Below, in pieces: positions 4,829-62,574 of a DNA stretch of 64,000 nucleotides (position 1 is its first letter; each line of letters begins with the position of its first letter). Source of the stretch: an uncultured Eubacteriales bacterium. GTDB taxonomy: Bacteria; Bacillota; Clostridia; Christensenellales; UBA1242. Below the pieces are notes generated by a model. That model worked only from the letters and a program-made list of their open reading frames with translations, was not told the origin of the DNA and did not search any database. Location of the stretch: NCBI GenBank assembly GCA_902476355.1, contig CABSCS010000004.1, positions 10,085 through 74,084 on the forward strand, read 5' to 3'. Made by a program: the position numbers and the translations under genes.

Positions 4829-6002
4829 GTTTTCTTTCTCCTTTTTCAAGTTCGTCCCAAACTGGTGAAATTCTTCTTAGATATTCAACAATTTCAGGAA
4901 CTTTTTTAATTACATAATCAATTTCTTCTTCGGTTGTATATTTTGAAAGTGTAAGGCGAAGAGAGCCGTGTGCAACTTCGTGTGGACGGCCAATTGCAAG
5001 AAGAACATGTGATGGGTCAAGCGAGCCTGATGTGCAAGCGCTTCCAGAAGAAGCACAAATTCCTGCATCATCAAGCAAAAGCAAAAGGCTTTCGCCCTCG
5101 ATTCCTTCAAAGCACATGTTAAAGTTGTTCGGAACACGTTTCACTGCATCACCATTAAGTGCACTGTGTGGAATTTTTGAAAGGTTTTTGATAAGTTTGT
5201 CACGAAGAAGTGTTTCCTTTTTTGCAACTTCTTGCATTTCAGAAACTGCATCGCAAAGTGCAGTTGACAAACCAACAATACCTGCAATGTTTTCAGTTCC
5301 TGCGCGTTTTCCTTTTTCTTGTGCACCGCCTTCAATAAGGCTTGAAAGCAAAATTGTGCTTTTTGCATAAAGTGCGCCAACACCTTTTGGTCCGTGGAAC
5401 TTGTGGCCAGAAATTGAAAGCATGTCAATGTTCATTTCTTTAACGTCAACTGGAATGTGTCCAACTGCTTGAACTGCGTCGGTGTGGAAAATCACGCCAT
5501 GCTTATGACAAATTTCTCCAATTTCTTTGATTGGTTGAATGGTTCCAATTTCGTTGTTGGCAAACATAATTGTAACAAGGCAGGTGTCTGGTCTGATTGC
5601 TTTTTCAACATCTTCTGGGTGAACAATTCCGTTTTCATAAACATCAAGATAGGTGACTTCATAGCCCTGTTTTTCAAGTTTTGCAAGGGTGTGAAGAACT
5701 GCGTGGTGTTCAAATTTAGAAGTGATAATGTGTTTTTTGTTTTTTCTTGCACCAATGATAGAAGAAGACAAAATTGCTTGGTTGTCGCTTTCGCTTCCAC
5801 CAGATGTGAAATAGATTTCTCTTGGCAAGCAGTTGATGCATTTTGCAACATTCGCTCTTGCTTCTTCAAGAACTTCTTTTGCTTTTTGTCCAAGAGTGTG
5901 AAGGCTTGATGCGTTTCCATATTCTTCTGAAAAATATGGCATCATTTTTTCAAGAACATGCTGGCTTACTTTGGTTGTTCCAGCATTGTCGAGATATATC
6001 AT
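4818..6002 (-). CDS. nifS: cysteine desulfurase NifS/IscS
   Basis: IYLDNAGTTKV..., SGHKFHGPKGVG (PLP lysine), SSGSACTSG. Start set at MIYLDN, which has an AAAGGAG RBS. Confidence 0.9.
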   Translation of the reverse strand: MIYLDNAGTTKVSQHVLEKMMPYFSEEYGNASSLHTLGQKAKEVLEEARANVAKCINCLPREIYFTSGGSESDNQAILSSSIIGARKNKKHIITSKFEHHAVLHTLAKLEKQGYEVTYLDVYENGIVHPEDVEKAIRPDTCLVTIMFANNEIGTIQPIKEIGEICHKHGVIFHTDAVQAVGHIPVDVKEMNIDMLSISGHKFHGPKGVGALYAKSTILLSSLIEGGAQEKGKRAGTENIAGIVGLSTALCDAVSEMQEVAKKETLLRDKLIKNLSKIPHSALNGDAVKRVPNNFNMCFEGIEGESLLLLLDDAGICASSGSACTSGSLDPSHVLLAIGRPHEVAHGSLRLTLSKYTTEEEIDYVIKKVPEIVEYLRRISPVWDELEKGERKHVI

Positions 6003-6158: not shown

Positions 6159-6581
6159 TTAAAATTTTAAAACAGGTTTTTTGAAATTCTTTTTCAAAAT
6201 GTCTTCAAGAGTAACATTTTCAAGATATTCGTTGATAAGTTGGTCAAGGTTTCCCCAAACACTTTGAGTGTCGCAGTTGCAGGCTCTTGGGCAATCTTTT
6301 CCGTGAAGGCAGGCAACAATTTCGGTTTGGTCGCCAGTTGCATTCAAAATTTCGCTTATCGTGTAATCTTTTGGCTCTTTAATAAGGCGATAACCACCGT
6401 CTTTTCCGCGAAGGCTTTCAAGCAGTGCATTTTTTGTGAGCATGTTTACAATTTTTTCAAGATATTTGACTGAAATGTCTTGGTTTTCAGCAATTTCTTG
6501 CACCGAGACAAATTTGCCGTCGTGTTTGGCAATTTCAATCATAATTCGAACTGCATATCTTCCTTTTGTTGTAAGTTCCAT
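6159..6581 (-). CDS. Rrf2-family transcriptional regulator (IscR/CymR-like)
   Basis: MELTTKGRYAVRIMIEIA..., three Cys (CLHGKDCPRACNC), located upstream of nifS-nifU. Confidence 0.85.
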   Translation of the reverse strand: MELTTKGRYAVRIMIEIAKHDGKFVSVQEIAENQDISVKYLEKIVNMLTKNALLESLRGKDGGYRLIKEPKDYTISEILNATGDQTEIVACLHGKDCPRACNCDTQSVWGNLDQLINEYLENVTLEDILKKNFKKPVLKF

Positions 6582-7566: not shown

Positions 7567-8010
7567 ATGTCAGAGTATACAATAAAAACAAAATGCCCAG
7601 TTTGTGGAAATATAATTTATATAGATTCTGTTGGTAATGGAGAAAGATGTGCTAATTGTGGATGGGATCACAGTAAAATACATGAAGATTTTCCCGATAG
7701 AGTAATGTGTCCTAACTTAATTTCCTTAAACAAGGCGAGAAAATTATATAAAGAGGGCAAGGTTTTTCTGCCTGATTTCAACGATTTTATTGATGGTTAT
7801 AATTTTTATGGCGAAATGGAATTTACTTATAAAGGCGTAACATATGGACTGATGGGGAATGCAAATGAAGGTGTTGAGTTTTGGGGAATGAATACAGATA
7901 TGTATGAGGTGTTCGATAATATTGAAGATTTTGCCCATAATGCCAAAATTGGAAATGAATATGTTAAAGATATTTGGGATAAAGTTGAAAATGCAAATTG
8001 GTTGCAGTGA
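7567..8010 (+). CDS. zinc-ribbon (CPxCG...CxxCGW) domain protein
   Basis: CPVCGNIIY...CANCGWDHS at the N-terminus. Function unknown. Confidence 0.5.
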   Translation: MSEYTIKTKCPVCGNIIYIDSVGNGERCANCGWDHSKIHEDFPDRVMCPNLISLNKARKLYKEGKVFLPDFNDFIDGYNFYGEMEFTYKGVTYGLMGNANEGVEFWGMNTDMYEVFDNIEDFAHNAKIGNEYVKDIWDKVENANWLQ

Positions 8011-8134
8011 AACTTTGCAAAAATTTTTGATATGACAAAAAATACAAATAAAAGTTCAGGCAAATTGCTTGGACTTTTTCTTTGTTTTTTATTTAATTGT
8101 TGCCTAGATGCAAATAAAATGATATAATTTGAAT

Positions 8135-8536
8135 ATGGAAAAAAATGAAATTGATATTGTGAAACAAAAAGTAAAGCAAATGCAACCTCTTGCACTTGCT
8201 TTTGTTGGTGACAGTGTTCACACTTTGTTTGTTCGTGAGCACCTTGTGAAAAGTGGCGACTTTAAAGTGAACCAACTCACTCGCATGACAAAAGAGTTTA
8301 TCAATGCGGGGTTTCAGTGCAAGGTTTTCAAAGAAATTGAACCAATGCTTTCCGAAGAAGAACACGACATTGCAATTCGTGCAAGAAACACAGCAAAGGG
8401 GCAAACCGCAAAAAACTATTCGGTTGTTGAATATAACTATGCAACCGCTTTTGAAGCACTTGTTGGCTTTTTATATTTAACTGGTCAAACCGAGCGCCTT
8501 TCACAAATTTTAAATTTATCAATATTGGAGAAATAG
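8135..8536 (+). CDS. mrnC: Mini-ribonuclease 3
   Basis: LALAFVGDSVHTLFVREHL, RARNTAKG, ATAFEALVGFLYL. Bacillus-like position upstream of rlmB and sigH. Confidence 0.85.
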   Translation: MEKNEIDIVKQKVKQMQPLALAFVGDSVHTLFVREHLVKSGDFKVNQLTRMTKEFINAGFQCKVFKEIEPMLSEEEHDIAIRARNTAKGQTAKNYSVVEYNYATAFEALVGFLYLTGQTERLSQILNLSILEK

Positions 8537-9259
8537 ATGTTAGCAGAAGGAAAAAATCCAGTTTTTGAAGCACTTAAATCTGGAACAACAATTGAAAAAA
8601 TCGTGGTTTTAGACAAAACCAACGACGCGGATATTCGCGAACAAATTAAAAAAGCAAAAGAAAAGAAAATTCGTGTTGAATTTGCACCAAAACAAGTTCT
8701 TGACAGAATGAGCAAAACTGGTCATCATCAAGGCATCATTGCGTTTACAACCGACTATAAATATTTCGAACTTGAAGATGTTTTGAAAGAACTTGAAAAC
8801 TCTGACAAAAGAAAACTTTTCATTTTGCTTGATGGTGTTGAAGACCCACACAACCTTGGAAGCATCATCAGAAGTGCCGAATGTTTGGGCTTTTCTGGCG
8901 TGATTATTCCATCTCGTCACAGCGCTCTTGTAAACGAAACAGTAATTCGTTCATCTGCTGGGGCAATCAACTATGTAAAAGTTATAAAGGTGAACAACCT
9001 TAACGATGCAATAAAGCGTCTTAAAGAGGAAAACATTTTTGTTTATAGCGCAGACATGGACGGCGAAGATATTCGAAAAACCAATCTTTCTGGCAATGTT
9101 GCAATTGTTGTTGGTTCAGAAGGTTTTGGGGTTTCAGACCTTACAAGAAAACTTTCTGACCAAATTATAAAAATTCCAATGACAGGAAACGTAAATTCAA
9201 TGAACGCAAGTGTTTCTGCCGGAATTTGCATGTATGAAACCGTGATGCAAGGAAAATAG
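8537..9259 (+). CDS. rlmB: 23S rRNA (guanosine-2'-O)-methyltransferase, SpoU/TrmH family
   Basis: LLDGVEDPHNLGSIIRSAE, IVVGSEGFGVS, IPMTGNVNSMNASVSAG. Confidence 0.85.
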   Translation: MLAEGKNPVFEALKSGTTIEKIVVLDKTNDADIREQIKKAKEKKIRVEFAPKQVLDRMSKTGHHQGIIAFTTDYKYFELEDVLKELENSDKRKLFILLDGVEDPHNLGSIIRSAECLGFSGVIIPSRHSALVNETVIRSSAGAINYVKVIKVNNLNDAIKRLKEENIFVYSADMDGEDIRKTNLSGNVAIVVGSEGFGVSDLTRKLSDQIIKIPMTGNVNSMNASVSAGICMYETVMQGK

Positions 9260-9260
9260 A

Positions 9261-9821
9261 ATGGAAAAAGAAAAAAATCAACTTGGCGAAGAACTTTTCA
9301 ACAACCTTGTCGACCAATATGCAAGCATGATTCGTGCAATTTGCCGAAAGTTCTATCTTATTGGTGGAACAAGTGAAGACCTTTATCAAGAGGGAATGAT
9401 TGGCTTTCTTGAAGCAATCAAAAATTTTGACACATCCAGGGCAGAATATGGAAGCGAGGTTTTCACAAAATATGCAATGACATGCGTGAAAAGAAAAGTT
9501 ATCGACGCAATTAAACATGCAAACGCGCAAAAGAATATGGCGCTCAACAACTCGGTTCCAATTGTTCGAACAAACAGTGAAGATGAAGAGTTCGAAATCG
9601 GCGAAATTGGTGCTGGCGACCCAGAAGAAATTTATCTTTCGCACGAAACTGCCGATGAAAGGATAGATCTTTTAATTCGCATTTTGAGCGACAAAGAAAG
9701 AAAAGTTCTTTCGCTTTATCTTGAAGGAATGACAAGTGCGCAAATTGCAAAAGAACTTGGAACAAGCGCCCGAAGCGTTACAAACACAATTCAACGAATT
9801 AAACTTAAAGTTAAAAAATAA
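9261..9821 (+). CDS. sigH: RNA polymerase sigma-70 family factor, SigH-like
   Basis: EDLYQEGMIGFLEAIKNFD (region 2) and SAQIAKELGTSARSVTNTIQRIK (region 4 HTH). Synteny with mrnC-rlmB. Confidence 0.7.
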   Translation: MEKEKNQLGEELFNNLVDQYASMIRAICRKFYLIGGTSEDLYQEGMIGFLEAIKNFDTSRAEYGSEVFTKYAMTCVKRKVIDAIKHANAQKNMALNNSVPIVRTNSEDEEFEIGEIGAGDPEEIYLSHETADERIDLLIRILSDKERKVLSLYLEGMTSAQIAKELGTSARSVTNTIQRIKLKVKK

Positions 9822-9832
9822 AGGAGAAAAAA

Positions 9833-11389
9833 ATGTATCTTGCTCTTTACAGAAAATATCGTCCACAAAATTTTGATGAAGTGATTGGTCAAGCCCACAT
9901 TATCCAAACTCTTGTAAACCAAATCAAGAATGACAAAATTGGACATGCCTATTTGTTTTGTGGAAGTCGTGGAACAGGAAAAACATCAACTGCAAAAATT
10001 TTTGCAAAAGCAATCAACTGTGAGCACCCTGTGAATGGTTCACCTTGCGGAAAGTGTGAAACATGCAAAGCGCTTGCAGGCAACAACATGGACATTTTGG
10101 AGATTGATGCTGCTTCAAACAATGGTGTTGATGAAATTCGTGATTTGCGCGAAAAGGTGAAATATCCTCCTGTTGCAGGAAAATATAAAGTTTATATCAT
10201 CGACGAGGTGCACATGCTTTCTCCAAGTGCGTTCAACGCACTTTTAAAAACATTGGAAGAGCCACCATCGCACGCTGTGTTCATTTTGGCAACAACCGAA
10301 GTTCACAAACTTCCAGCAACAATTTTGTCAAGATGTTTGCGCTTTGACTTTGGTTTGGTTTCGGTTGCAGACCTTTCAATGCTTTTGAAAAAGGTTTTCA
10401 AGAACGAGGGTATCAATGCCGAAGATTCTGCTGTCGAGGTGATTGCTCGTGCGGGTGAAGGAAGTGTTCGTGACACTCTTTCAATTGCGGATAGGTGCAT
10501 TTCATATTCGGGCGAAAACCTGACCTATAAAAGCGTTATGGAAGTTCTTGGAACAACCGAAAAAGATATGCTTTTGCAAATCTCTTCTGCGGTTTTGTCT
10601 GGAAATATGGGGCAAAGCATGATAGAACTTGACAAGGTTTTGTCGGGTGGAAAAAGTCCTCTTGTTTTGAGCAAAGATTTGATTTCATATTTCAGAGATC
10701 TCATGATCATTCAAACTCTTGGCGACAAAGCAAAAACAATGGTTGTTGCATCTCCTGAAACATTTGAAAAAATGAAAGAGCAAGCAACCGAAGAAGCATA
10801 TGCAAAAATTGTTTCACTTATCAGCAACCTCAGCGAAATTGAGGCAGAACTTCGTTATAGCATAAATCCAAGAATTGTTTTGGAAACTGCAATCATCAAA
10901 ACTCTTGCAGACGTAAGTTTGCTTGAAAAAGTAGAGAAACTTGAAAAAATGGTTTCTGGCGGTGGTTTCACAACTCTTCCTGCTAAAAATGCAGAAAACC
11001 GACCAGTTGTGACAGCAACTGCACCTCAAACCCAACAAAAAGTGCAAGAAAGCGTGCAAAAAGTTGAAAGACCAGTGCAAAACAGCGAAAATGCAAACAG
11101 TTTGCTTGGGCAATTGCTTTCATATCTTCGTGAAAACAAAGATATGGGCTTGCTTGCTGCAATCAGACAGGTTCAAAAGGTTGACCTTGAAAACAACAAT
11201 GCAACGTTCTATGTTGAAGATAAGCTTACTCTTGATTTGATTTCAAGAGAGAAAAACAAAGTTGTTCTTCGTGAGTTTTTTGACAACCTTGGGCTTTCAT
11301 ATTCTTTCAAAGTGAAAGAAGCAGTGGCAAAGGGAAATGTGAATGAACTTTCATCATATTTTGGCGGAAAACTTGAAGTTGACGAATAA
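9833..11389 (+). CDS. dnaX: DNA polymerase III subunit gamma/tau
   Basis: YRPQNFDEVIGQ, GSRGTGKTS Walker A, Zn module CGKCETC, IIDEVHMLS. Confidence 0.95.
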   Translation: MYLALYRKYRPQNFDEVIGQAHIIQTLVNQIKNDKIGHAYLFCGSRGTGKTSTAKIFAKAINCEHPVNGSPCGKCETCKALAGNNMDILEIDAASNNGVDEIRDLREKVKYPPVAGKYKVYIIDEVHMLSPSAFNALLKTLEEPPSHAVFILATTEVHKLPATILSRCLRFDFGLVSVADLSMLLKKVFKNEGINAEDSAVEVIARAGEGSVRDTLSIADRCISYSGENLTYKSVMEVLGTTEKDMLLQISSAVLSGNMGQSMIELDKVLSGGKSPLVLSKDLISYFRDLMIIQTLGDKAKTMVVASPETFEKMKEQATEEAYAKIVSLISNLSEIEAELRYSINPRIVLETAIIKTLADVSLLEKVEKLEKMVSGGGFTTLPAKNAENRPVVTATAPQTQQKVQESVQKVERPVQNSENANSLLGQLLSYLRENKDMGLLAAIRQVQKVDLENNNATFYVEDKLTLDLISREKNKVVLREFFDNLGLSYSFKVKEAVAKGNVNELSSYFGGKLEVDE

Positions 11390-12369: not shown

Positions 12370-12470
12370 AAAAAATCAACATCAATTTTTTATTGGTGTT
12401 GTTTTTATTTTGCTTTAAAAAAGATGCAATATTTTTTGCAGTGTGATAAAATAGTTTCGAGGTGAAAGAA

Positions 12471-13178
12471 ATGACAATTTTTTTGACAAGTATTGTTCCA
12501 TTTTATAAAAAGGGAATATTCGGAATAAAAAGACCTGCAAAACTTGACAACACAAACAATTTTTCAGACAACCTTGTTTCAAGTTTAAAAAACACAAACC
12601 GTTTTGTTATGATTGCAAACGACCCAGAGGCGTTTTTGGAAAATGACAAACGCGCAAAAATGATGAAAAAATCTTTTGCGAAAACTGGCATAAAGTTTAA
12701 AGAAACAATTGTGCTTGACAAAAGAAAACAAGACAAGGCAAAAGACATTGTTTCAGGTGCCGACCTTGTTGTTCTTTGTGGTGGAGAGTGTCTTCGCGAA
12801 CTCAAATTTTTCGAAAGCATAAATCTTGCAGAACTTCTTTCAGATTTCAAAGGCGTGATTATTGGAATTTCTGCGGGTGCCATGAATCTTGGAAAAATTG
12901 TTGCAAACTTTCCAGAAGATGAAATGGGAAAAGATGAACCAAGATGGCTTGAAGGGCTGGGGCTTTATTCGGGCATTTTGATTCCACACTTTGATGGTGT
13001 TTTTTATCAGTTTGAACTTGAATTTGATACTGTTCAAGAATATATTTTGCCAATGTCAGAGTGGCATGATTTTGTTGCCATTCCAAACCTTTCATATATT
13101 TTGATAAATGAAAATGGCGAAAAAATTTATGGCGACGCATTCAAAATTTCAAAAAGAGTTGTCACAAAAATCAACTAA
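12471..13178 (+). CDS. peptidase S51 (dipeptidase E)-like protein
   Basis: DLVVLCGGEC...GISAGAMNLG...IPHFD pattern. Start set at the ATG after the GAGGTG RBS. Confidence 0.55.
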   Translation: MTIFLTSIVPFYKKGIFGIKRPAKLDNTNNFSDNLVSSLKNTNRFVMIANDPEAFLENDKRAKMMKKSFAKTGIKFKETIVLDKRKQDKAKDIVSGADLVVLCGGECLRELKFFESINLAELLSDFKGVIIGISAGAMNLGKIVANFPEDEMGKDEPRWLEGLGLYSGILIPHFDGVFYQFELEFDTVQEYILPMSEWHDFVAIPNLSYILINENGEKIYGDAFKISKRVVTKIN

Positions 13179-13293
13179 AAAATCAAATATTGATAAATAA
13201 TATATAATATAAAATACTTTATTTATAGCGTTAAAAAAAAGACAAAAGCAAATTCTTGCAAAAGGCTTAAAGCGCAAAATCGGCGTTTTGTGG

Positions 13294-13322
13294 TTGACAG
13301 ATTTGCATTTTGATGCTATAAT
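13294..13322 (+). promoter_or_regulatory. consensus sigma-A promoter for the aspS-gatCAB leader
   Basis: TTGACA (13294-13299), 17-nt spacer, TATAAT (13317-13322). Confidence 0.65.
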
Positions 13323-13349
13323 AAAGAAAATCAAAAAAGGAGCAATATT

Positions 13350-13442
13350 ATGTTTACATTCGCAGTTCTTGCTAACAACAATAACAATAATAACGCAAAC
13401 ACATTAAACATAATGGGTTCCTTTTCTATTGTTAGAAACTAG
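13350..13442 (+). CDS. candidate Asn-rich leader peptide (30 aa)
   Basis: AAAGGAG RBS then ATG. Sequence MFTFAVLANNNNNNNANTLNIMGSFSIVRN*. 10 of 30 codons are Asn, 7 of them consecutive. Too short for the ORF track. Confidence 0.5.
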   Translation: MFTFAVLANNNNNNNANTLNIMGSFSIVRN

Positions 13443-13465
13443 TTGGCATAATAAAAATAAATGGC

Positions 13466-13502
13466 AAAGAGTGGAAAGGTTTAACCCTTCCACTCTTTTT
13501 TT
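13466..13502 (+). terminator. intrinsic terminator / candidate attenuator upstream of aspS
   Basis: AAAGAGTGGAAAGG-loop-CCCTTCCACTCTTT (11 bp, one mismatch, then 2 bp) followed by T7, located 139 nt upstream of the aspS ATG. Confidence 0.7.
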
Positions 13503-13640
13503 ATCAGGAGAAAAATCATGAAACTTTATAAATCAAAAACAAATGCCCGTTTGGGCAAATAATTTTAAACATAAAAAAATAATTTCAAACAAAATATAGT
13601 CAAATTTTAAAATATAATCAAAATTTAGGAGAAAATAAAA

Positions 13641-15374
13641 ATGTATAGAACAATAACATGCAAAGAACTTGACGAGTCTTATATTGGAAAAACCGTTCAA
13701 GTTGCAGGGTGGGTGAAGGTTGTTCGTGACCACGGCGGAATTGTATTTATCGACCTTCGCGACAAATATGGGTTTGTGCAACTTAAAACCTATGACGACA
13801 GTTTGCTTGTTTCGCTTTCAAAAGAAAGTGTAATCAGCGTTACAGGAACTGTTCAAAAACGTGATGAAGACACGATTGATGAAAAATCAAAACTTGGAAC
13901 AATTGAAATTTTAATTGAAAAAATGGAGGTTCTTTCAAGAGCAAAACACATGCTTCCTTTCGAAATTGAAGAAAGCCGAAAAACAAGCGAAGATATTCGT
14001 TTGAAATATCGCTATCTTGACCTTCGAAGCAGTGAAATGCAAAGAAAAATCAAACTTCGCAGTGATGTTCTTTATGACATGAGAACAATCATGCGTGAAA
14101 AAGGATTTGAAGAAATTCAAACTCCAATTCTGTCAGTTTCAAGCCCCGAGGGGGCAAGAGACTATTTGGTGCCAAGCAGAGTTCATAAAGGCAAATTTTA
14201 TGCACTTCCACAAGCACCACAACAATATAAACAACTTTTGATGTGTGCAGGCTTTGATAAATATTTTCAAATTGCACCATGTTTCAGAGATGAAGATGCA
14301 AGAGCCGACCGTTCTCCTGGAGAGTTTTATCAACTTGACATGGAAATGAGTTTTGCAACGCAAGAAGATGTTTTTGCGGTTTGTGAAGACCTTCTTTATC
14401 AAATCTTTTCTAAATATGGAACAAAGAAAATGCCAGACAAGCACTTTGTGAAAATTCCATATAAAGAGGCGCTAATCAAATATGGAAGCGACAAGCCAGA
14501 CCTTCGCATTAAAATTGAAATGCAAAGTTTGGACAAAATTTTCGAGAAAACCGAGTTTTCTGCTTTCCGCGGAAAAACAATTGAAGGATTTTCTGTTCAT
14601 GCTGATGGACAACCTCGTTCGTTTTATGATAAACTTACAGAAGAGATATTATCTCTTGGAGGAAAAGGTCTTGCGTGGGTTCGTGTTTTGGACGACGGCT
14701 CACTTAAAGGCCCAATTGTAAAATTCATTTCAGAAGAAGAGTGCGAAATGCTCAAAAAAGCAACAAAAGCACAAGTTGGTGACGACATTTTTGTTATTGC
14801 AGACGACAGCGCGAAAAAGTGTTTTATGCTTGCATCAACACTTCGAACAAGAGTTGGCGAAGCACTTCATCTTAAAGATGACAGCGAATATAAGTTCTGC
14901 TGGATTGTGGACTTTCCGATGTATGAAAAAGACGAAGACTCTGGTGAAATTGGATTTTGTCACAACCCTTTCAGCCTTCCACAAGGCGGGCTTAAATCAC
15001 TTGAAGAAAAAGACCCTCTTGAAATATTAGCATATCAATATGACGTTGTTGTTGATGGTGTTGAACTTTCAAGTGGTGCCGTTAGAAGCACAGACGAAAA
15101 AACAATGCTCAAAGCGTTTGAAATTGCAGGATATTCTGCCGAAGAAGTTGAAAGAAAGTTTGGTGCGCTTTACACCGCTTTCCAATATGGTGCTCCGCCA
15201 CACGCAGGAATTGCCCCTGGCGTAGACCGCATTTTGATGCTTCTTCTTGGCGAAACAAGCATCAGAGAAGTTATCGCTTTTCCAATGAGTTCAAAAGCAC
15301 AAGATTTGATGATGGGCGCTCCAAGCATCGTAACCGAAGAACAACTTCGTGAGATTCACATTAAAATTAGATAG
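13641..15374 (+). CDS. aspS: aspartate--tRNA ligase (probably non-discriminating, given the linked gatCAB)
   Basis: Class II aaRS motifs: FIDLRD, QSPQ-like LPQAPQQYKQLL, FRDED.RADR, GGLDRI-like APGVDRILM. Confidence 0.95.
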   Translation: MYRTITCKELDESYIGKTVQVAGWVKVVRDHGGIVFIDLRDKYGFVQLKTYDDSLLVSLSKESVISVTGTVQKRDEDTIDEKSKLGTIEILIEKMEVLSRAKHMLPFEIEESRKTSEDIRLKYRYLDLRSSEMQRKIKLRSDVLYDMRTIMREKGFEEIQTPILSVSSPEGARDYLVPSRVHKGKFYALPQAPQQYKQLLMCAGFDKYFQIAPCFRDEDARADRSPGEFYQLDMEMSFATQEDVFAVCEDLLYQIFSKYGTKKMPDKHFVKIPYKEALIKYGSDKPDLRIKIEMQSLDKIFEKTEFSAFRGKTIEGFSVHADGQPRSFYDKLTEEILSLGGKGLAWVRVLDDGSLKGPIVKFISEEECEMLKKATKAQVGDDIFVIADDSAKKCFMLASTLRTRVGEALHLKDDSEYKFCWIVDFPMYEKDEDSGEIGFCHNPFSLPQGGLKSLEEKDPLEILAYQYDVVVDGVELSSGAVRSTDEKTMLKAFEIAGYSAEEVERKFGALYTAFQYGAPPHAGIAPGVDRILMLLLGETSIREVIAFPMSSKAQDLMMGAPSIVTEEQLREIHIKIR

Positions 15375-15385
15375 GAGAAAAGAAA

Positions 15386-15652
15386 ATGCAAATTGACATT
15401 AAACATCTTGAAAGTTTAAGCAAACTTGAATTTGATGAGAGCAAAGAAAAACAATTTGAAAAAGACCTTGAAAAGATTTTGGATTTCGTTGATGAAATCA
15501 CAAAACTAAATCTTCCAAAAGAAGACAAGTCAAAAGCCATGTCAATCTCTGCTCTTCGTGAAGATGAACCAGCAGTGGGTGATTTTGACCCTCTTTCTAA
15601 CGCTCCGGACAAAAAGGATGGGTGCTATAAAGTGCCATTGGTGGTGGAATAA
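15386..15652 (+). CDS. gatC: Asp/Glu-tRNA amidotransferase subunit C
   Basis: 88 aa, LSKLEFDESK...LREDE, immediately upstream of gatA. Confidence 0.9.
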   Translation: MQIDIKHLESLSKLEFDESKEKQFEKDLEKILDFVDEITKLNLPKEDKSKAMSISALREDEPAVGDFDPLSNAPDKKDGCYKVPLVVE

Positions 15653-17055
15653 TGGACTTTTTAAAAATGAGCATAAAACAAATTTCAGATGGCGTGAAAA
15701 AACAAGATTTTTCAGCCGAAGAAGTTGTGAAATTTTTTATTGACAGAATTGAAAAATACAAGGAATATAATGCCATTATCGAGGTTTTTGATGATGCAGA
15801 GCAAAAGGCAAAAGCGATTGATGAAAAAATCAAAAGTGGCGAAAAACTTGGAGAGATGGCGGGCGTTCCTGTCATCTTGAAAGACAACATTTTATATTTG
15901 GGGCACAAAATGAGTGTTGCAAGTGCATTCATGAAAGATTATGTTGCTCCGTACAGTGCAACAATTGTGAAAAAACTTAAAAAAGCGGGCGCAGTTATCA
16001 TTGCTCGTGCAAACATGGACGAATTTGCAATGGGTGGAAGCACTGAAAACAGTGTTTATGGCGTAACACTGAACTCAAAAGACAAAACTCGTGTTGCGGG
16101 TGGTTCTTCTGGTGGAAGTGCGACTGCGGTTGCTTTGGGGCTTGCTCCTGTTGCAATTGGAACAGATACTGGTGGTTCTATTCGTCAACCAAGTTCTTTT
16201 AACGGCACTGTTGGAATAAAACCAACCTATGGCACTGTGTCAAGATATGGCATTGTTGCGTTTGCGTCTTCAACCGACCAAGCATCACCAATCACAAGGA
16301 CAATTGAGGATAACGAACTTGTTTTGAAAATCATGGCGGGCAAAGACCAGTTTGACCAAACATCAATTGAAAACGATTTTGGAGTGGCAAAGAAAACTTA
16401 TACCATTGGGCTTTGCAAAGAATTGATGGACAAAATCCAAAAACTTGAACAATATCCACTTTTTGAAAAGAAGATTAAAGATTTTGAAAAGGCAGGATTT
16501 ATCATTAAACAAGTCAGTGTTCCACACATTGCAAGCAGTCTTGCGTGCTACTATGTTTTAACCCCTGCCGAGGCAACAAGCAACCTTGCAAGATTTGACG
16601 GAGTGAAATATACAACTCGTGCAAAAGATGCAAAAACAATTGATGAAATTTTAATAAAAAGCCGAAGCCAAGGTTTTGGTGACGAAGTGAAAAGAAGAAT
16701 CATACTTGGAAACTTTGTTTTGTCAAGCGGATATTTTGATGCCTACTATAAAAAGGCAAAGGAACTTCAACAACTTTTGAAAAAAGAGTTTGCAAAGGCG
16801 TTTGAAGAGTGCGATGTGATCATAACTCCAACAACCCCAGACGTGGCTTTCAAAATTGGAGAAAAAAGCAAAGACCCAATCAGCATGTATCTTGAAGACT
16901 TGTTCACGGTTCCTGCATCAATTTCTGGAATACCAGCAATAAGTGTTCCATATGCAGAAAAACAGGGTTTGCCTCTTGGCATGCAAATCATTGGAAAAGA
17001 AAAGTCGGAAAGTGTTTTATATGACATTGCAAAATGTATCATGGAGGAAAAATAA
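15652..17055 (+). CDS. gatA: Asp/Glu-tRNA amidotransferase subunit A
   Basis: Amidase signature GGSSGGSATAVA...GTDTGGSIRQPSSF. Confidence 0.95.
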   Translation: MDFLKMSIKQISDGVKKQDFSAEEVVKFFIDRIEKYKEYNAIIEVFDDAEQKAKAIDEKIKSGEKLGEMAGVPVILKDNILYLGHKMSVASAFMKDYVAPYSATIVKKLKKAGAVIIARANMDEFAMGGSTENSVYGVTLNSKDKTRVAGGSSGGSATAVALGLAPVAIGTDTGGSIRQPSSFNGTVGIKPTYGTVSRYGIVAFASSTDQASPITRTIEDNELVLKIMAGKDQFDQTSIENDFGVAKKTYTIGLCKELMDKIQKLEQYPLFEKKIKDFEKAGFIIKQVSVPHIASSLACYYVLTPAEATSNLARFDGVKYTTRAKDAKTIDEILIKSRSQGFGDEVKRRIILGNFVLSSGYFDAYYKKAKELQQLLKKEFAKAFEECDVIITPTTPDVAFKIGEKSKDPISMYLEDLFTVPASISGIPAISVPYAEKQGLPLGMQIIGKEKSESVLYDIAKCIMEEK

Positions 17056-18461
17056 TGGAATTTGATGTTGTAATCGGGCTTGAAATTCATGCCGAACTTA
17101 AAACAAAAACCAAAGTTTTTTGCTCTTGTAAAAACGAATTTGGTGCAAAGCCAAACACAAACACTTGTCCAATTTGCACAGGTGCACCGGGTGCTTTGCC
17201 AATTTTAAACAAAAAAGCAGTTGAACTTTGCATCAAGGCGGGGCTTTGTTTTGGTTGTAAAATCAACAACTATGCCGTGATGGAAAGAAAAAACTATTTC
17301 TATCCAGACCTTTCAAAAGCCTATCAAATTTCGCAAATGGTTCACCCAATTTGCCTTGGTGGAAAAGTGGTTTTGGACAGCGGAAAAGAAATGCTTTTGA
17401 ACCGCATTCACCTTGAAGAAGATGCCGGAAAACTTGTTCACGTTTCAAAAGCGGTTGGAACACTTATCGACTATAACCGTGGCGGAACCCCTCTCATTGA
17501 AATTGTAACCGAACCTGTGTTTTCATGTGCAGAAGAGGTTGATGAGTTTTTGAAAAAAGTTCGTGAAACTTTGATTTTTGCAGATGTTGCAAACTGCAAA
17601 ATGGAACAAGGAGGAATGAGGTGCGATGTGAACTTGTCGCTTAAACCAAAGGGCTCAAACGTTCTTGGAACACGAACCGAAATGAAAAACCTTAACTCTT
17701 TTAAAAGTGTTTCGCGTGCCATTTTATATGAGATTGAAAGACAAAAAGATGTTCTTTCTCACGGCGGAACCATATATCAAGAAACTCGAAAATGGGATGA
17801 CTCTCTTGGTGAAAACTTCACAATGCGAACAAAAGAAGAAGCCCAAGACTATCGCTATTTTCCAGACCCAGACATTTTGCCTTTCACAATTTCAGATGAA
17901 GATGTTTCTCGCATTAAAAACGAAATTCCAGCCTTGCCACAAGCAAGAAGAGAAAAATATGTTTCAGAATATGGAATTTCTAAAATTGACAGCGAACATT
18001 TAACAGACAGTAAATATGTTTCGGACTATTTTGAAAAATGTGTTTCACTTTTTGACAAGCCAAAGAAAATCAGCAACTGGATTTTGACAGATTTGTTCCG
18101 TCTTGTGAAAGATGAAAAAAGTTTTGTTTTCCCAGTTTCAGAAGAAGAGTTGGTTTTAATTATAAAAATGGTTGAAGATGGAAAACTTACAAAAACAAAC
18201 GGGCTTGTTGTTTTGGACGAAACCATAAAAACTCACAAAAATCCAGAAGAAATTGCAAAAGAAAAGAATCTCATTTCTATTATTTCAGAAGAAGACATCA
18301 AAAAGATTTTGGAAAGATTTAAAGCCGAAAATCCAAAAGCAGTTGAAGACTTTAAAAAAGACCCAAAGGTTACGAGTTTTATTATTGGTTATGTAATGAA
18401 AAACACACAAGGCAAAGCAAACGGAACTCTTGTTCGCGATTTGATTTCAAAAATGTTTTAA
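17055..18461 (+). CDS. gatB: Asp/Glu-tRNA amidotransferase subunit B
   Basis: MEFDVVIGLEIHAEL...RKNYFYPDL...LEEDAGK. The ATG overlaps the gatA TAA (TAATG). Confidence 0.95.
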   Translation: MEFDVVIGLEIHAELKTKTKVFCSCKNEFGAKPNTNTCPICTGAPGALPILNKKAVELCIKAGLCFGCKINNYAVMERKNYFYPDLSKAYQISQMVHPICLGGKVVLDSGKEMLLNRIHLEEDAGKLVHVSKAVGTLIDYNRGGTPLIEIVTEPVFSCAEEVDEFLKKVRETLIFADVANCKMEQGGMRCDVNLSLKPKGSNVLGTRTEMKNLNSFKSVSRAILYEIERQKDVLSHGGTIYQETRKWDDSLGENFTMRTKEEAQDYRYFPDPDILPFTISDEDVSRIKNEIPALPQARREKYVSEYGISKIDSEHLTDSKYVSDYFEKCVSLFDKPKKISNWILTDLFRLVKDEKSFVFPVSEEELVLIIKMVEDGKLTKTNGLVVLDETIKTHKNPEEIAKEKNLISIISEEDIKKILERFKAENPKAVEDFKKDPKVTSFIIGYVMKNTQGKANGTLVRDLISKMF

Positions 18462-18472
18462 ACTTTCAAATA

Positions 18473-18502
18473 AAAAAATCATGCAATTTTGCATGATTTT
18501 TT
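18473..18502 (+). terminator. intrinsic terminator after gatB
   Basis: AAAAAATCATGCAA/TTGCATGATTTTTT hairpin plus T run. Confidence 0.75.
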
Positions 18503-18629
18503 CTTTGTTTATGGGTTTGTTTTATATGTTTTGCGTTTTTTAATATAGATTTATGTTTTTATGTTGATATATTGTTTTAAAAACTGCAAAAACGGTTATT
18601 TTTGTGCGGTTTTTGTGTGAAATTTTGCA

Positions 18630-19883
18630 TTATTTGTTTATAATATTGTTTAAAGCAATCATAATGCCAAGTTTGCCATATTCATAGGTCAGTCCGCCTT
18701 GCATAAATGCGAAATATGGTGGGGTCATTGGGCCGTCGCAACTAAGTTCAATTGTCGCACCAGAAATGAAACTTCCGCCAGCCATAACCTCGTCATGAGG
18801 ATAGCCGTCCATAGGGGCAGGAACAGGAGTAACAAAACTGTCAATTGGGCAACCAAATTGAATTCCTTTGCAAAATTCAACAAGATTTTCTGCGGTGTTC
18901 AATTTGATTGTTTGAATAATGTCGGTTCTTTTTTCATCAAAAGTTGGTGAGACTTCATATCCAAGTTCTTCAAGCATTGCGCTTGCGAAAACAGCGGTTT
19001 TAACAGATGATGCAACAACAGATGGTGCAACATAAAGTCCACGATAGAAATCCAAGTTTTCGTTCAGGTTTGCACCAATGTTTTTTCCAATGCATGGGGC
19101 AGAAAAGCGTTCGGCAACATCTTCAATAAGTTCTTTTTTGCCAACAACATATCCGCCAGTTCTTGCAACTCCACCGCCAAGATTTTTCATGAGAGAACCA
19201 ACCAAAATGTCGCAACCAACTTCGGTTGGTTCTTTTTCTTCAACAAGGTCGCCATAGCAGTTGTCAACCATGATGATAACTTTTTTATCAACTTCTCTAA
19301 TTGCTTTGCAAACTCTTTCAATTTTATCAATTGTCAAACTTTTGCGGTCGCTATATCCACGGCTTCTTTGAATTTCAACAAGTTTAACATCATGTTTTGA
19401 AAGTCTTTTCACAATTGCAGGAATGTCAAAATCGTTGCCATCAAGTTCGATTTGCTCATATTTTGCGCCATATTTTAGAAGTGAGTTTCTGCTGTTTCCT
19501 TCGGTTCCAATAACACTTTTAAGTGTGTCATATGGGTCGCCAGAAATTGAAATGAAAGTGTCACCAGGCTTCAAAAGTCCAAAAAAGGTGAGAGCCAAGG
19601 CGTGTGTTCCAGACATGATTTGGTTTCGAACAAGTGCGTCTTCTGCTCCGAAAATGCGAGCATAGATTCTTTCAAGTTTGTCGCGTCCTTCGTCATAGAA
19701 ACCATAGCCAGTAATTTCGTTAAAGTCGGTTGTTGTCACTCTTTCGGCTTGAAATGCTTGAAGCACTTTTGCAGAGTTTTTCATGCAAATGCGGTCAATG
19801 TTTTCAAAAATTGGTTTAATTTTCTCTTCGGTTTTTTCTGCAAGAGAAACAAGTTCTTTGCTAAAATTATAATTGTTATACAT
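18630..19883 (-). CDS. ynbB: PLP-dependent methionine gamma-lyase family protein (YnbB, aluminium-resistance family)
   Basis: N-terminal region ...VLQAFQAERVTTTDFNEITGYGFYDEGRDKLERIYARIFGAEDALVR is characteristic of this family as I recall it. Confidence 0.75.
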   Translation of the reverse strand: MYNNYNFSKELVSLAEKTEEKIKPIFENIDRICMKNSAKVLQAFQAERVTTTDFNEITGYGFYDEGRDKLERIYARIFGAEDALVRNQIMSGTHALALTFFGLLKPGDTFISISGDPYDTLKSVIGTEGNSRNSLLKYGAKYEQIELDGNDFDIPAIVKRLSKHDVKLVEIQRSRGYSDRKSLTIDKIERVCKAIREVDKKVIIMVDNCYGDLVEEKEPTEVGCDILVGSLMKNLGGGVARTGGYVVGKKELIEDVAERFSAPCIGKNIGANLNENLDFYRGLYVAPSVVASSVKTAVFASAMLEELGYEVSPTFDEKRTDIIQTIKLNTAENLVEFCKGIQFGCPIDSFVTPVPAPMDGYPHDEVMAGGSFISGATIELSCDGPMTPPYFAFMQGGLTYEYGKLGIMIALNNIINK

Positions 19884-20837: not shown

Positions 20838-21061
20838 ATGAAAAAAGAAAAGTAGTCATCATTTCGGGTGCAATAAGTGGAATTTTGGTTCTTTTAAGTG
20901 TTTTGGTTTATCTTGTTTTAGGAATCGTAATAAATTGGTGGAACCCGGGTTGGGTTATCGTTGTTGCTGCTGCCATTTTAAGTGCAAAATTATCAGTTTT
21001 AACAAACATGATTATTGAACTTAAAAAAGCAGAAACCGAAGCGAAAGATAAAACCGAATAA
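20838..21061 (+). pseudogene. small (about 74 aa) two-TM membrane protein gene disrupted at an A-run
   Basis: ATG AAA AAA GAA AAG TAG. Adding one A gives MKKRKVVIISGAISGILVLLSVLVYLVLGIVINWWNPGWVIVVAAAILSAKLSVLTNMIIELKKAETEAKDKTE*. Confidence 0.4.
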
Positions 21062-25142: not shown

Positions 25143-25219
<77 letters not shown>

Positions 25220-44709: not shown

Positions 44710-44786
44710 TGGTGCAACCGGAGGGATTCGAACCCCCGACCTTTCGGTTCGTAGCCGAATGCTCTATCCAGCTGAGCTACGGTTGC
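44710..44786 (-). tRNA. tRNA-Arg (anticodon ACG)
   Basis: Reverse strand: GCAACCG TA GCTC AGCTGGATA GAGC A TTCGG CTACGAA CCGAA AGGTC GGGGG TTCGAAT CCCTC CGGTTGC A CCA. Confidence 0.9.
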
Positions 44787-46899: not shown

Positions 46900-46976
46900 C
46901 GCGGGATAGAGCAGTCCGGAAGCTCGTTGGGCTCATAACCCAAAGGTCGTAGGTTCAAATCCTACTCCCGCAACCA
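46900..46976 (+). tRNA. initiator tRNA-fMet (anticodon CAT)
   Basis: CGCGGGA TA GAGC AGTCCGGAA GCTC G TTGGG CTCATAA CCCAA AGGTC GTAGG TTCAAAT CCTAC TCCCGCA A CCA. C1-A72 mismatch and a GGG/CCC anticodon stem. TTGACA-17-TATTAT promoter upstream. Confidence 0.9.
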
Positions 46977-62389: not shown

Positions 62390-62574
62390 TTGACAAAAAT
62401 GTTTTTTGGTGTATAATTACTTTCGTAAATAAAAAATTCGTGCCAAAGACAGTAAGTGGCGAACGCCTTAATTTCTTACCGAGGAACAGAAAAAAGAGAT
62501 TGCTATCCCTTGTGTTGTTCCCAGCGCAAGGGTTTTTTATTTCCACTTCACACGAAAATAGAGGAGGAAATATA
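62390..62574 (+). promoter_or_regulatory. rplJ promoter plus L10-leader-type 5' UTR with a terminator/attenuator hairpin
   Basis: TTGACA (62390-95) and TATAAT (62412-17). CCCTTG...CAAGGG hairpin plus T6 at 62507-62538, ahead of the rplJ RBS GAGGAGG. Confidence 0.6.

Follow-up and report, generated by a model that had tools for sequence, protein, structure and literature searches.

A probable leader-peptide attenuator upstream of aspS-gatCAB

In a 64,000-nucleotide stretch of contig CABSCS010000004.1 from an uncultured Eubacteriales bacterium (GenBank assembly GCA_902476355.1), the whole of which we refer to as the window, the aspS and gatCAB genes are preceded by what is very probably a ribosome-mediated (leader-peptide) transcription attenuator, one that senses Asn-tRNA(Asn) and controls aspS-gatCAB; we put the probability of this reading at roughly 85%. 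The window has a GC content of 34%, its nearest named relative is Candidatus Onthoplasma (Christensenellales), and Pfam matches place aspS, for aspartyl-tRNA synthetase (AspRS), and gatCAB in one operon. The argument is carried by the anatomy, conservation and positional logic of the element, by its taking the place of an Asn-specifier T-box, and by alternative pairings that are energetically feasible. Between the promoter and the first structural gene there is an open reading frame (ORF) with a Shine-Dalgarno sequence (SD) and start codon, and this ORF holds a cluster of the relevant codons; a terminator precedes aspS, and an antiterminator exclusive of that terminator can form.

Anatomy of the leader

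The coordinates of all features are collected in Table 1, in which relatives carry our own locus handles (L001, etc.). The promoter was the sole 12/12 match of a promoter scan within 12400-19000, and an equivalent (TTGACA-17-TAnAAT) occurs at the matching place in L081, L001, L083, L084 and L177. The leader SD, AAAGGAG, is separated by 7 nt from the ATG at 13350, which opens a leader ORF (ORF1) with 10 Asn codons, 7 of them consecutive. This is the only run of five or more AAY triplets in the window, both strands counted, and a 7-AAY run arose in none of 200 windows simulated with a first-order Markov model; the Asn run is not a chance feature. No other SD-preceded small ORF of the window exceeds 6/7 identical residues in sense orientation, and a small ORF with a CCCC run at 20935, tried as a Cys leader, was rejected, as its frame is an alternative one within a small ORF that precedes a phosphoketolase gene. 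The terminator hairpin, AAAGAGTGGAAAGG-TTTAA-CCCTTCCACTCTTT at 13466-13498, has a free energy (dG) of -17.2 kcal/mol and starts 23 nt past the leader stop codon.

The first-pass annotation of this DNA had placed the promoter (TTGACA-17-TATAAT, 13294-13322), the AAAGGAG and the 30-codon ORF with its 10 Asn codons exactly where we find them, and its terminator at 13466-13502 likewise stands, with the distance from the stop codon corrected from 24 to 23 nt. It had also seen no T-box in 13179-13640, and this holds over a wider region: 13100-13750 gave no match to the T-box covariance model or to any other Rfam family even at E<=10, showed no Stem I and no specifier loop, and the T-box core motif was found nowhere in the 64 kb. 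An Rfam scan of the window leader matched no family at gathering score, the His_leader, Phe_leader, Thr_leader, Trp_leader, Leu_leader and leu/phe leader families included. The best leader-family match, to L20_leader (24.4 bits, threshold 58.7), was discarded as driven by the terminator alone, as were the matches to Phe_leader (20.4 bits, threshold 55) and, weakly, to Termite-leu.

Conservation of the Asn run among relatives

Relatives were retrieved with AspS from representative genomes and, via AspS homologues, from assemblies; a metagenome scan with AspS, in which the matches listed were <=57% identical and included no leader-bearing locus, was the source of the control and T-box loci. Wherever the relevant upstream region of a distinct relative in the same AspS clade was available, a short Asn-run ORF was found upstream of aspS or gatC, with a terminator after it (12 of 12 relatives, 58-90% AspS identity). 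This count includes L085 (76%), in which the leader is weak (4 Asn, TTG start), and leaves out L090, for which the region upstream of gatC was not among the fetched DNA. Conservation of the ORF and terminator in related genomes had been proposed earlier as a check on the attenuator, and it was found throughout, L085 being the one weak case. Among ~150 other loci (AspS <=59%), small ORFs with at least 4 consecutive Asn gave 3 matches, none of them sense-oriented upstream of aspS, and under relaxed criteria too these control loci had no such ORF before aspS.

The leader tracks aspS or gatC across three gene orders: aspS-gatCAB, (dtd-)gatCAB-aspS and lone aspS. L176 and L178 (75-76%) have two attenuators per operon, in the order promoter, leader MFRLINNNNNNDNLNAFNMGFIFVVEKN, terminator, dtd-gatC-gatA-gatB, leader MKKMLLDNLNNNNNNT, terminator, aspS. 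In both, the second leader begins directly at the gatB stop codon (TAA-ATG), an arrangement that suggests translation of this leader by reinitiating ribosomes; in L086/L087 (75-76%) a version of the second leader sits in the gatB-aspS spacer.

Most relatives have runs of 6-7 Asn, or Asn interspersed with Asp. Asp, the other amino acid that depends on AspRS, is the commonest residue to interrupt a run (L001, L083, L177, L088, L176, L172), and A, E, L and F also occur within or beside the runs. The leaders range from 13 to 30 aa, and the Asn (+Asp) run is the only feature common to all leader types; the reading frame across it is always open, with a start codon before it. The short leaders of L086, L172, L174 and L002 have no RNA sequence in common with the window, only the succession of SD, start, Asn run, stop and terminator. 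The window and its five closest relatives form a group that we term type A (n=6), in which the peptides have NTL..M..FSIV in common. As a 1-nt insertion in L084 shifts the peptide frame (...MGSLFYCLLK) and the RNA sequence CCCUUUUCUAUUGU is nevertheless retained, the 3' half of the leader is conserved as RNA, not as peptide. A small hairpin just 3' of the proposed stall site (13398-13419) is kept in sequence in the alignment of all type A leaders and forms in the stalled-ribosome folds of the window, L081, L001, L083 and L084; it may be a pause or spacer element.

At the L083 leader, a public gene call of 53 aa (2180-2341) begins at the leader ATG and runs through the leader TGA stop; this looks like an artefact of gene calling with genetic code 4, as the AspS and Gat genes of L083 are intact under code 11.

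Asn-specifier T-boxes in the neighbouring clade

Outside the leader clade, the aspS upstream regions have terminators with a common CGUCCCU arm. Rfam at gathering score found no T-box in 19 relatives; a covariance-model search judged by E-value identified T-box leaders upstream of aspS in 9 of 9 loci tested (57-88 bits, E-values of 1e-10 to 1e-17). These scores lie just below the Rfam 15 gathering cut-off of 93 bits, which is why default Rfam annotation misses these T-boxes. Of 97 loci searched, 42 have the T-box core motif (AGGGUGGNACCGCG) no more than 700 nt upstream of aspS, and none of these 42 belongs to the leader-bearing clade; the motif was absent from 22 of 22 leader-bearing loci. With the specifier taken from the cmscan alignment as the triplet immediately 5' of the conserved purine ahead of the closing stem, AAC (Asn) is the specifier in at least 25 loci (...GA AAC A CAUUGGAGC) and GAC in none of the readable ones.

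In a neighbour-joining AspS tree the leader-bearing loci form one clade, to which L002 (with a leader) and L003 (with neither element) are sister, and the T-box loci form a clade neighbouring it. It appears from these comparisons that the same signal is sensed by different devices in neighbouring clades, T-box versus leader peptide, and the simplest reading would be that an Asn-codon leader peptide took the place of an Asn-specifier T-box once. The Asn specifiers on these orthologues also support a role of this AspRS in charging tRNA(Asn). The summary in PMC4052509 of Saad et al. (2013) has the transamidation operon of Clostridium acetobutylicum under the control of a T-box that binds tRNAAsn and tRNAGlu. 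Independently, that T-box supports both tRNA(Asn) charging as the signal and the proposed role of the AspRS, and because the C. acetobutylicum operon has a tRNAAsn-binding T-box on the account in PMC4052509, the absence of AsnRS and AsnA/B is not required for the logic of the attenuator.

Alternative pairings of the leader RNA

The unconstrained minimum free energy (MFE) fold of 13328-13510 has a dG of -38.6 (z-score -3.5). In it the leader SD and AUG (13335-13356) pair with 13405-13425 in a duplex of dG -20.8, the most stable element of the leader. This SD:anti-SD helix is compatible with 6 of 6 type A leaders (dG -14 to -21), its cells being paired in 84% of cases across the six versus 42-65% for slid-partner controls, and one A-U to G-C compensatory pair occurs in its SD. 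The modelled leader layout is 1 (SD/AUG) : 2 (anti-SD) : 3 : 4, in which 3:4 is the terminator.

A terminator was present in 12 of 12 leaders folded (dG -8 to -21 kcal/mol, 15-45 nt past the leader stop); the terminator sequences are unrelated between leader groups and their position is retained. We folded the nascent RNA of 10 leaders up to just before the terminator 3' arm, with a model ribosome covering 12 nt beyond the first base of the A-site codon (an assumed footprint). A ribosome placed on the Asn run leaves 8-12 nt of the terminator 5' arm paired with an upstream segment in 8 of the 10 (window, L081, L001, L083, L084, L086, L172, L174), the nascent fold having a total dG between -9 and -19 kcal/mol; moved to the stop codon, it reduces this pairing to 0-3 nt in 8 of the 10 (window, L081, L001, L083, L084, L086, L088, L174).

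The window antiterminator has ~17 pairs (dG -13.4), between GGGUU.CCUUUUCUAUU.GU (13415-13434) and the 5' arm, loop and first 3'-arm bases, AACC, of the terminator (13466-13486). Its core is CCUUUUC:GGAAAGG (CCTTTTC at 13420-13426, GGAAAGG at 13473-13479), the 7-bp pairing picked out by the first-pass annotation, which the ribosome-position folds recover and extend. Counterparts recur in other lineages. In L001, L177, L083 and L084 the conserved segment CCCUUUUCUAUU pairs with another terminator arm, AAUGGAAUAGGG (AAUGGAAGAGGG in L177), at dG -15 to -19; in L088 and L176 a homologous GGGUUUC...UGUUGA pairs with UCAACA...GAAAC(U/C)C at dG -16 to -20, and a G-U pair in L088 is G-C in L176. For the short leaders, the antiterminator strand coincides with the stop codon or follows it closely (L086, UGUGCUUC:GGAGCACA; L174, UAUGCGGaCC:GGCCGCAUA). 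Overall, 2:3 duplexes of -13 to -20 kcal/mol form in 9 of 12 leaders. Exclusive terminator and antiterminator states, as foreseen earlier, are thus found; the simple two-state scheme is not, as segment 2 has three alternative states. The earlier proposal of attenuation is itself strengthened by the conservation in relatives and by the stall-dependent antiterminator in the folds of 8 of 10 leaders.

Proposed mechanism and its weak points

We infer ribosome stalling, read-through and a non-discriminating AspRS, in a scheme of the following kind. Transcription would start at the 13294-13322 promoter and a ribosome would begin to translate the leader of 30 codons. With Asn-tRNA(Asn) in good supply, it would pass the seven Asn codons, cover segment 2 (13415-13434) and halt at 13440; with segment 2 covered, the terminator at 13466-13498 would fold and transcription would end before aspS. 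When Asn-tRNA(Asn) is scarce, the ribosome would stall on 13374-13394 and leave segment 2 free to pair with the emerging terminator 5' arm (the 2:3 antiterminator), giving read-through into aspS-gatCAB, the products of which would make Asp-tRNA(Asn) and convert it to Asn-tRNA(Asn). If the leader is untranslated, 1:2 (segment 2 with its own SD/AUG) and 3:4 would form and transcription would terminate, so that the default state would be off. The Asp codons within the runs of relatives would make the device responsive to Asp-tRNA(Asp) too, which AspRS also produces.

Several observations count against this scheme. At equilibrium, the terminator state of the window (about -25 kcal/mol) is ~12 kcal/mol more stable than the antiterminator state (about -13 kcal/mol), and the decision must therefore be kinetic (co-transcriptional); classic attenuators rely on such kinetics, and the trp attenuator has a similar energy imbalance. 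The type A relatives are closely related, which leaves covariation thin. Under the assumed footprint the antiterminator of L172 stays paired with the ribosome at the stop codon, and that of L002 is weak in the ribosome-position folds. When the antiterminator energy gain was compared with dinucleotide shuffles of the upstream segment, single sequences were only marginally better than the shuffles (window p=0.06, L081 0.17, L083 0.25) and L002 was no better (p=0.63); the other values were 0.07 (L001), 0.08 (L084), 0.16 (L088), <0.004 (L086), 0.04 (L172) and 0.02 (L174). The HMMs (hidden Markov models) assign the window AspS only as 'bacterial-type AspRS' and cannot separate discriminating from non-discriminating enzymes. 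Lastly, a second small ORF (ORF2) and the hairpin within it, discussed below, are conserved yet have no role in the model.

As a positive control for the shuffle test, the E. coli hisL attenuator gave p=0.08 by the identical folding and shuffle procedure; the test has low power, and the window behaves in it like a true attenuator. Support for the antiterminator comes from its recurrence across lineages, with a combined Fisher p of 1e-4 over the leaders, an approximate value as the lineages are not fully independent.

Alternative explanations

An improbable alternative is that the element is a real attenuator that reads general translation capacity, or that acts via SD:anti-SD on leader translation, or the terminated leader of which works as a small RNA, with the Asn run being a slow patch. 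The SD:anti-SD helix, as the most stable leader element (dG -20.8), and the weak single-sequence statistics of the antiterminator would suit it, and terminated attenuator RNAs and trans-acting leader peptides are known for Sinorhizobium trpL (PMC7968998, PMC7298713). However, the Asn (+Asp) run is the sole feature shared by all leader types, the remaining peptide and RNA being variable, the controlled genes are exactly those that make Asn-tRNA(Asn), and the sister-clade T-box at the same place, with its Asn specifier, points to tRNA(Asn) as the signal; neither general-translation sensing nor a trans-acting RNA explains the Asn specificity or the T-box parallel.

Lower still we rate the idea that the leader RNA switches by binding a ligand, a tRNA or a protein (as a degenerate T-box, a riboswitch, or an AspRS or GatCAB operator would) and that the Asn-run ORF is incidental to it. 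Conservation as RNA of the leader 3' half and of the ORF2 hairpin, and the use of T-boxes at the aspS locus by relatives, would be in keeping with such a switch, but there is neither an Rfam match at E<=10 nor a T-box core motif in the window or leader-bearing loci, the leaders of L086, L172, L174 and L002 have none of the window's RNA sequence, and a start codon and an open frame accompany the run in every case. The least probable suggestion, that ORF1 is a functional small peptide (signal, bacteriocin or membrane), or that the functional product is an antisense poly-Leu toxin-like peptide, MFNVFALLLLLLLARTANVNIILLLF (from 13411, minus strand), and that proximity to aspS is coincidental, can draw on the SD-like sequences of both ORFs and on the NTL..M..FSIV residues of the type A peptides, but founders on the L084 frameshift (altered C-terminal peptide, RNA sequence kept), on leaders of 13-30 aa with only the Asn run in common, on the absence of the poly-Leu ORF from the 90%-identical L081 and most other relatives, on the lack of a Pfam match to ORF1, and on an aspS/gatC linkage that survives gene rearrangements. 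The antisense ORF (13411-13331, minus strand, with an SD-like sequence) is a by-product of the Asn run.

ORF2 and its hairpin

The first-pass annotation had also noted, after the terminator, a second mini-ORF with a good ribosome-binding site at 13518-13562 that it could not explain. This ORF2 is real in the sense that it is kept, with its SD (AGGAG, 13506-13510), in 6 of 6 type A leaders, in which an SD and AUG 8-25 nt past the U-tract open an ORF2 of 14-34 codons. Its only conserved part is (A/G)A(U/C)-GCCC-NNNN-GGGC-(A/G), which folds into a 5-bp hairpin: four G-C pairs are invariant, and the closing pair is U-A, U-G or C-G. Directly 5' of the stem, five leaders have an Asn codon and L177 an Asp codon. 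The rest of the window lacks the motif, and elsewhere in 180 loci it gave one match, in a Streptomyces locus, which we take to be chance.

We considered and rejected three origins or functions: ORF2 as a remnant of the dtd 5' end, as dtd follows the attenuator in L176/L178 (alignment scores were no better than shuffles); the hairpin as a mimic of an anticodon arm (its loops have 4 nt and vary: GUUU, GUCG, AGUU, CAAG, UUUG); and the hairpin as a plus-strand terminator (it has no U-tract). Its candidate roles are those of a second checkpoint, a protein operator or a stabilising element. We regard it as unlikely, though less so than any of the alternatives above, that the type A leader is a two-stage device in which the Asn attenuator is followed by ORF2 and its GC hairpin as a second, independent checkpoint on read-through transcripts; that second stage could be an AspRS or GatCAB operator, or a second ribosome-dependent switch. 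If so, aspS-gatCAB expression would combine tRNA charging with a further input. As part of this less likely reading, the lineage may also have exchanged T-boxes for leader peptides more widely.

The operon and its surroundings

The four structural genes follow the leader and end at a terminator-like hairpin (Table 1). The longest gatB ORF starts at 17034, and the true start is probably near 17055, judging from the 468-aa product in L081. No class IIb paralogue of AspS was found in the 64-kb window.

Between ORF2 and aspS, the window has a candidate weak internal promoter (13584-13613, TTCAAA-18-TAAAAT, 9/12), and in L001, L177, L083 and L084 a conserved AAAAATTTATATTA block lies in the same interval (L001 about 2935-2965; L083 about 2425-2460). 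An internal site there could give basal, attenuator-independent aspS expression. The 77-79% relatives also have extra hairpins in this interval (L001 2925-2950 and 2975-2995; L084 2405-2440 and 2470-2492; L083 2417-2432 and 2478-2492), one of them directly upstream of the aspS SD; the window and L081 are without these hairpins.

Elsewhere in the window there are an L10 ribosomal-protein leader (82 bits, 62425-62547) and tRNA genes for Arg-CCT, Arg-ACG and Met (25143-25219; 44710-44786, minus strand; 46900-46976). Among the relatives, L178 has, just downstream of aspS (7895-11317), an integrase gene followed by SLATT_4 and SMODS/AGS_C genes (a defence island resembling CBASS, the cyclic oligonucleotide-based antiphage signalling system); L174 has a Fic-domain gene followed by a reverse-transcriptase (RVT_1) gene (9075-11336); and L176 has, at about 2400-2570, a GC-rich patch in AT-rich DNA that is predicted to be structured (dG -64 kcal/mol, z = -2.05), with no Rfam match at E<=0.1.

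Table 1. Features of the aspS-gatCAB leader and operon in the window, and the corresponding elements in relatives (AspS, identity to the window protein).
Locus	Feature	Coordinates	Strand	Remarks
Window	Sigma-70-type promoter: TTGACA 13294-13299, 17-nt spacer, TG-extended TATAAT 13317-13322	13294-13322	+	Score 12/12
Window	SD AAAGGAG of leader ORF	13336-13342	+	Also 5' strand (segment 1) of SD:anti-SD helix
Window	Leader ORF1, MFTFAVLANNNNNNNANTLNIMGSFSIVRN, 30 codons and stop	13350-13442	+	
Window	Regulatory codons, 7 consecutive Asn (AAC AAC AAT AAC AAT AAT AAC)	13374-13394	+	
Window	Small hairpin, AAC.CAUUA-AACA-UAAUG.GUU	13398-13419	+	
Window	Segment 2, GGGUUCCUUUUCUAUUGUUA: anti-SD and 5' strand of antiterminator	13415-13434	+	Pairs with leader SD/AUG or terminator 5' arm
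Window	Intrinsic terminator (segments 3:4)	13466-13502	+	5' arm 13466-13480, loop 13481-13483, 3' arm 13484-13498, U-tract to 13502
Window	ORF2, MKLYKSKTNARLGK	13518-13562	+	
Window	5-bp GC hairpin inside ORF2, UGCCC-GUUU-GGGCA	13544-13557	+	
Window	aspS, bacterial-type AspRS, 577 aa	13641-15374	+	PF00152, PF01336, PF02938; NCBIfam
Window	gatC	15386-15652	+	Pfam
Window	gatA	15652-17055	+	Pfam
Window	gatB (longest ORF)	17034-18461	+	Pfam
Window	Terminator-like hairpin at operon end	18473-18502	+	
L081/L082	Leader MFKIFANNNNNNNANTLNIMGSFSIVIK			AspS 90%; upstream of aspS
L001	Leader MIRVCLINNNNNNNDNNTLYLMRPFSIVC			AspS 78%; upstream of aspS
L083	Leader MIRVCLINNNNNNDNNTLYLMRPFSIVC			AspS 79%; upstream of aspS
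L177	Leader MIRVCLINNDNNNDDNTLYLMRPFSIVC			AspS 78%; upstream of aspS
L084	Leader MIKVCLINNNNNNENTLYLMGSLFYCLLK			AspS 77%; upstream of aspS
L088/L089	Leader MFRLFDNNNNDDNLNAFNMGFIFVVEK			AspS 72%; lone aspS
L172	Leader MLYMANNNDNNNY			AspS 69%; upstream of gatC
L174	Leader MLIKFLNNNNNNNLNHI			AspS 65%; upstream of gatC
L002	Leader MVKVILVNNNNNNNFNVTQ			AspS 58%; upstream of aspS
L176	Double Asn attenuators	2826-2965 and 6346-6470		
L178	Double Asn attenuators	1057-1195 and 4847-4970		
L004, L005, L007, L008, L009, L012, L013, L016, L024 and about 33 further	T-box	About 60-450 nt upstream of aspS		

Relation to known systems and significance

Attenuation by leader peptides is textbook biology, with examples for Trp, His, Phe, Leu, Thr and Ile/Val. 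Close in design is hisL of E. coli and Salmonella (Rfam His_leader), where seven codons for the sensed residue stand in a row within a short ORF, alternative hairpins and an intrinsic terminator follow, and ribosome position decides. Unlike the window element, hisL senses His, controls biosynthetic genes and belongs to Proteobacteria, and the window has no sequence or covariance-model similarity to it; hisL uses a cascade of three hairpin pairs, whereas segment 1 of the window is the leader's own SD/AUG and not the regulatory codons. The E. coli pheST leader (pheM) and, in Bacilli, the His leader upstream of a hisS paralogue/hisZ are, like the element described here, leader-peptide attenuators of an aminoacyl-tRNA synthetase gene, but they sense Phe or His, not Asn; in the window the target also includes an amidotransferase, and the sensed molecule would be made on the tRNA by the regulated enzymes themselves.

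The Asn-specifier T-boxes of C. acetobutylicum and of sister-clade gut Clostridia (metagenome-assembled genomes) have in common with the window the genes, the inferred tRNA(Asn) signal, the terminator/antiterminator output and the orthologous position. The difference lies in the sensor: a T-box binds uncharged tRNA directly via a structured RNA of ~200 nt, while the window element would read charging through the translating ribosome. Naville and Gautheret (PMC2965389) treat 'regular' leader peptides that replace T-boxes in Firmicutes as a notable finding, their case being the His leader upstream of a hisS paralogue. Mycobacterial polycysteine leaderless short ORFs (bioRxiv 10.1101/834739) are a more recent example that likewise has a run of codons for one residue and is described as a Cys-responsive attenuator of operonic expression; they differ in amino acid, phylum and target genes, and the likeness is to the description in the abstract rather than to the mechanism.

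No Asn leader peptide was described in the literature that we covered by full-text searches and by term look-ups inside attenuation papers, which agrees with the first-pass annotation, itself unaware of one for this operon, and no Rfam family covers the leader element. The novelty lies in the amino acid sensed (Asn, with Asp), in the target, which is the tRNA-dependent Asn pathway, and in the lineage, that of uncultured low-GC gut Clostridia; the class of mechanism is known. Asn would join the amino acids sensed by leader-peptide attenuation, and as the sensed Asn-tRNA(Asn) is the direct product of the controlled enzymes, the feedback loop would be a very short one. A T-box in one clade and a seven-Asn leader in the next, on orthologous aspS genes, would make a clean sensor swap that is useful for the study of how regulatory RNAs are replaced. 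Metagenome annotation overlooks both devices, the T-boxes of these AT-rich genomes because they fall below the Rfam gathering score and the leader ORFs because they are unannotated or mis-called. For the biology of these uncultured gut bacteria, the result provides indirect evidence that they rely on the indirect pathway for Asn-tRNA(Asn).

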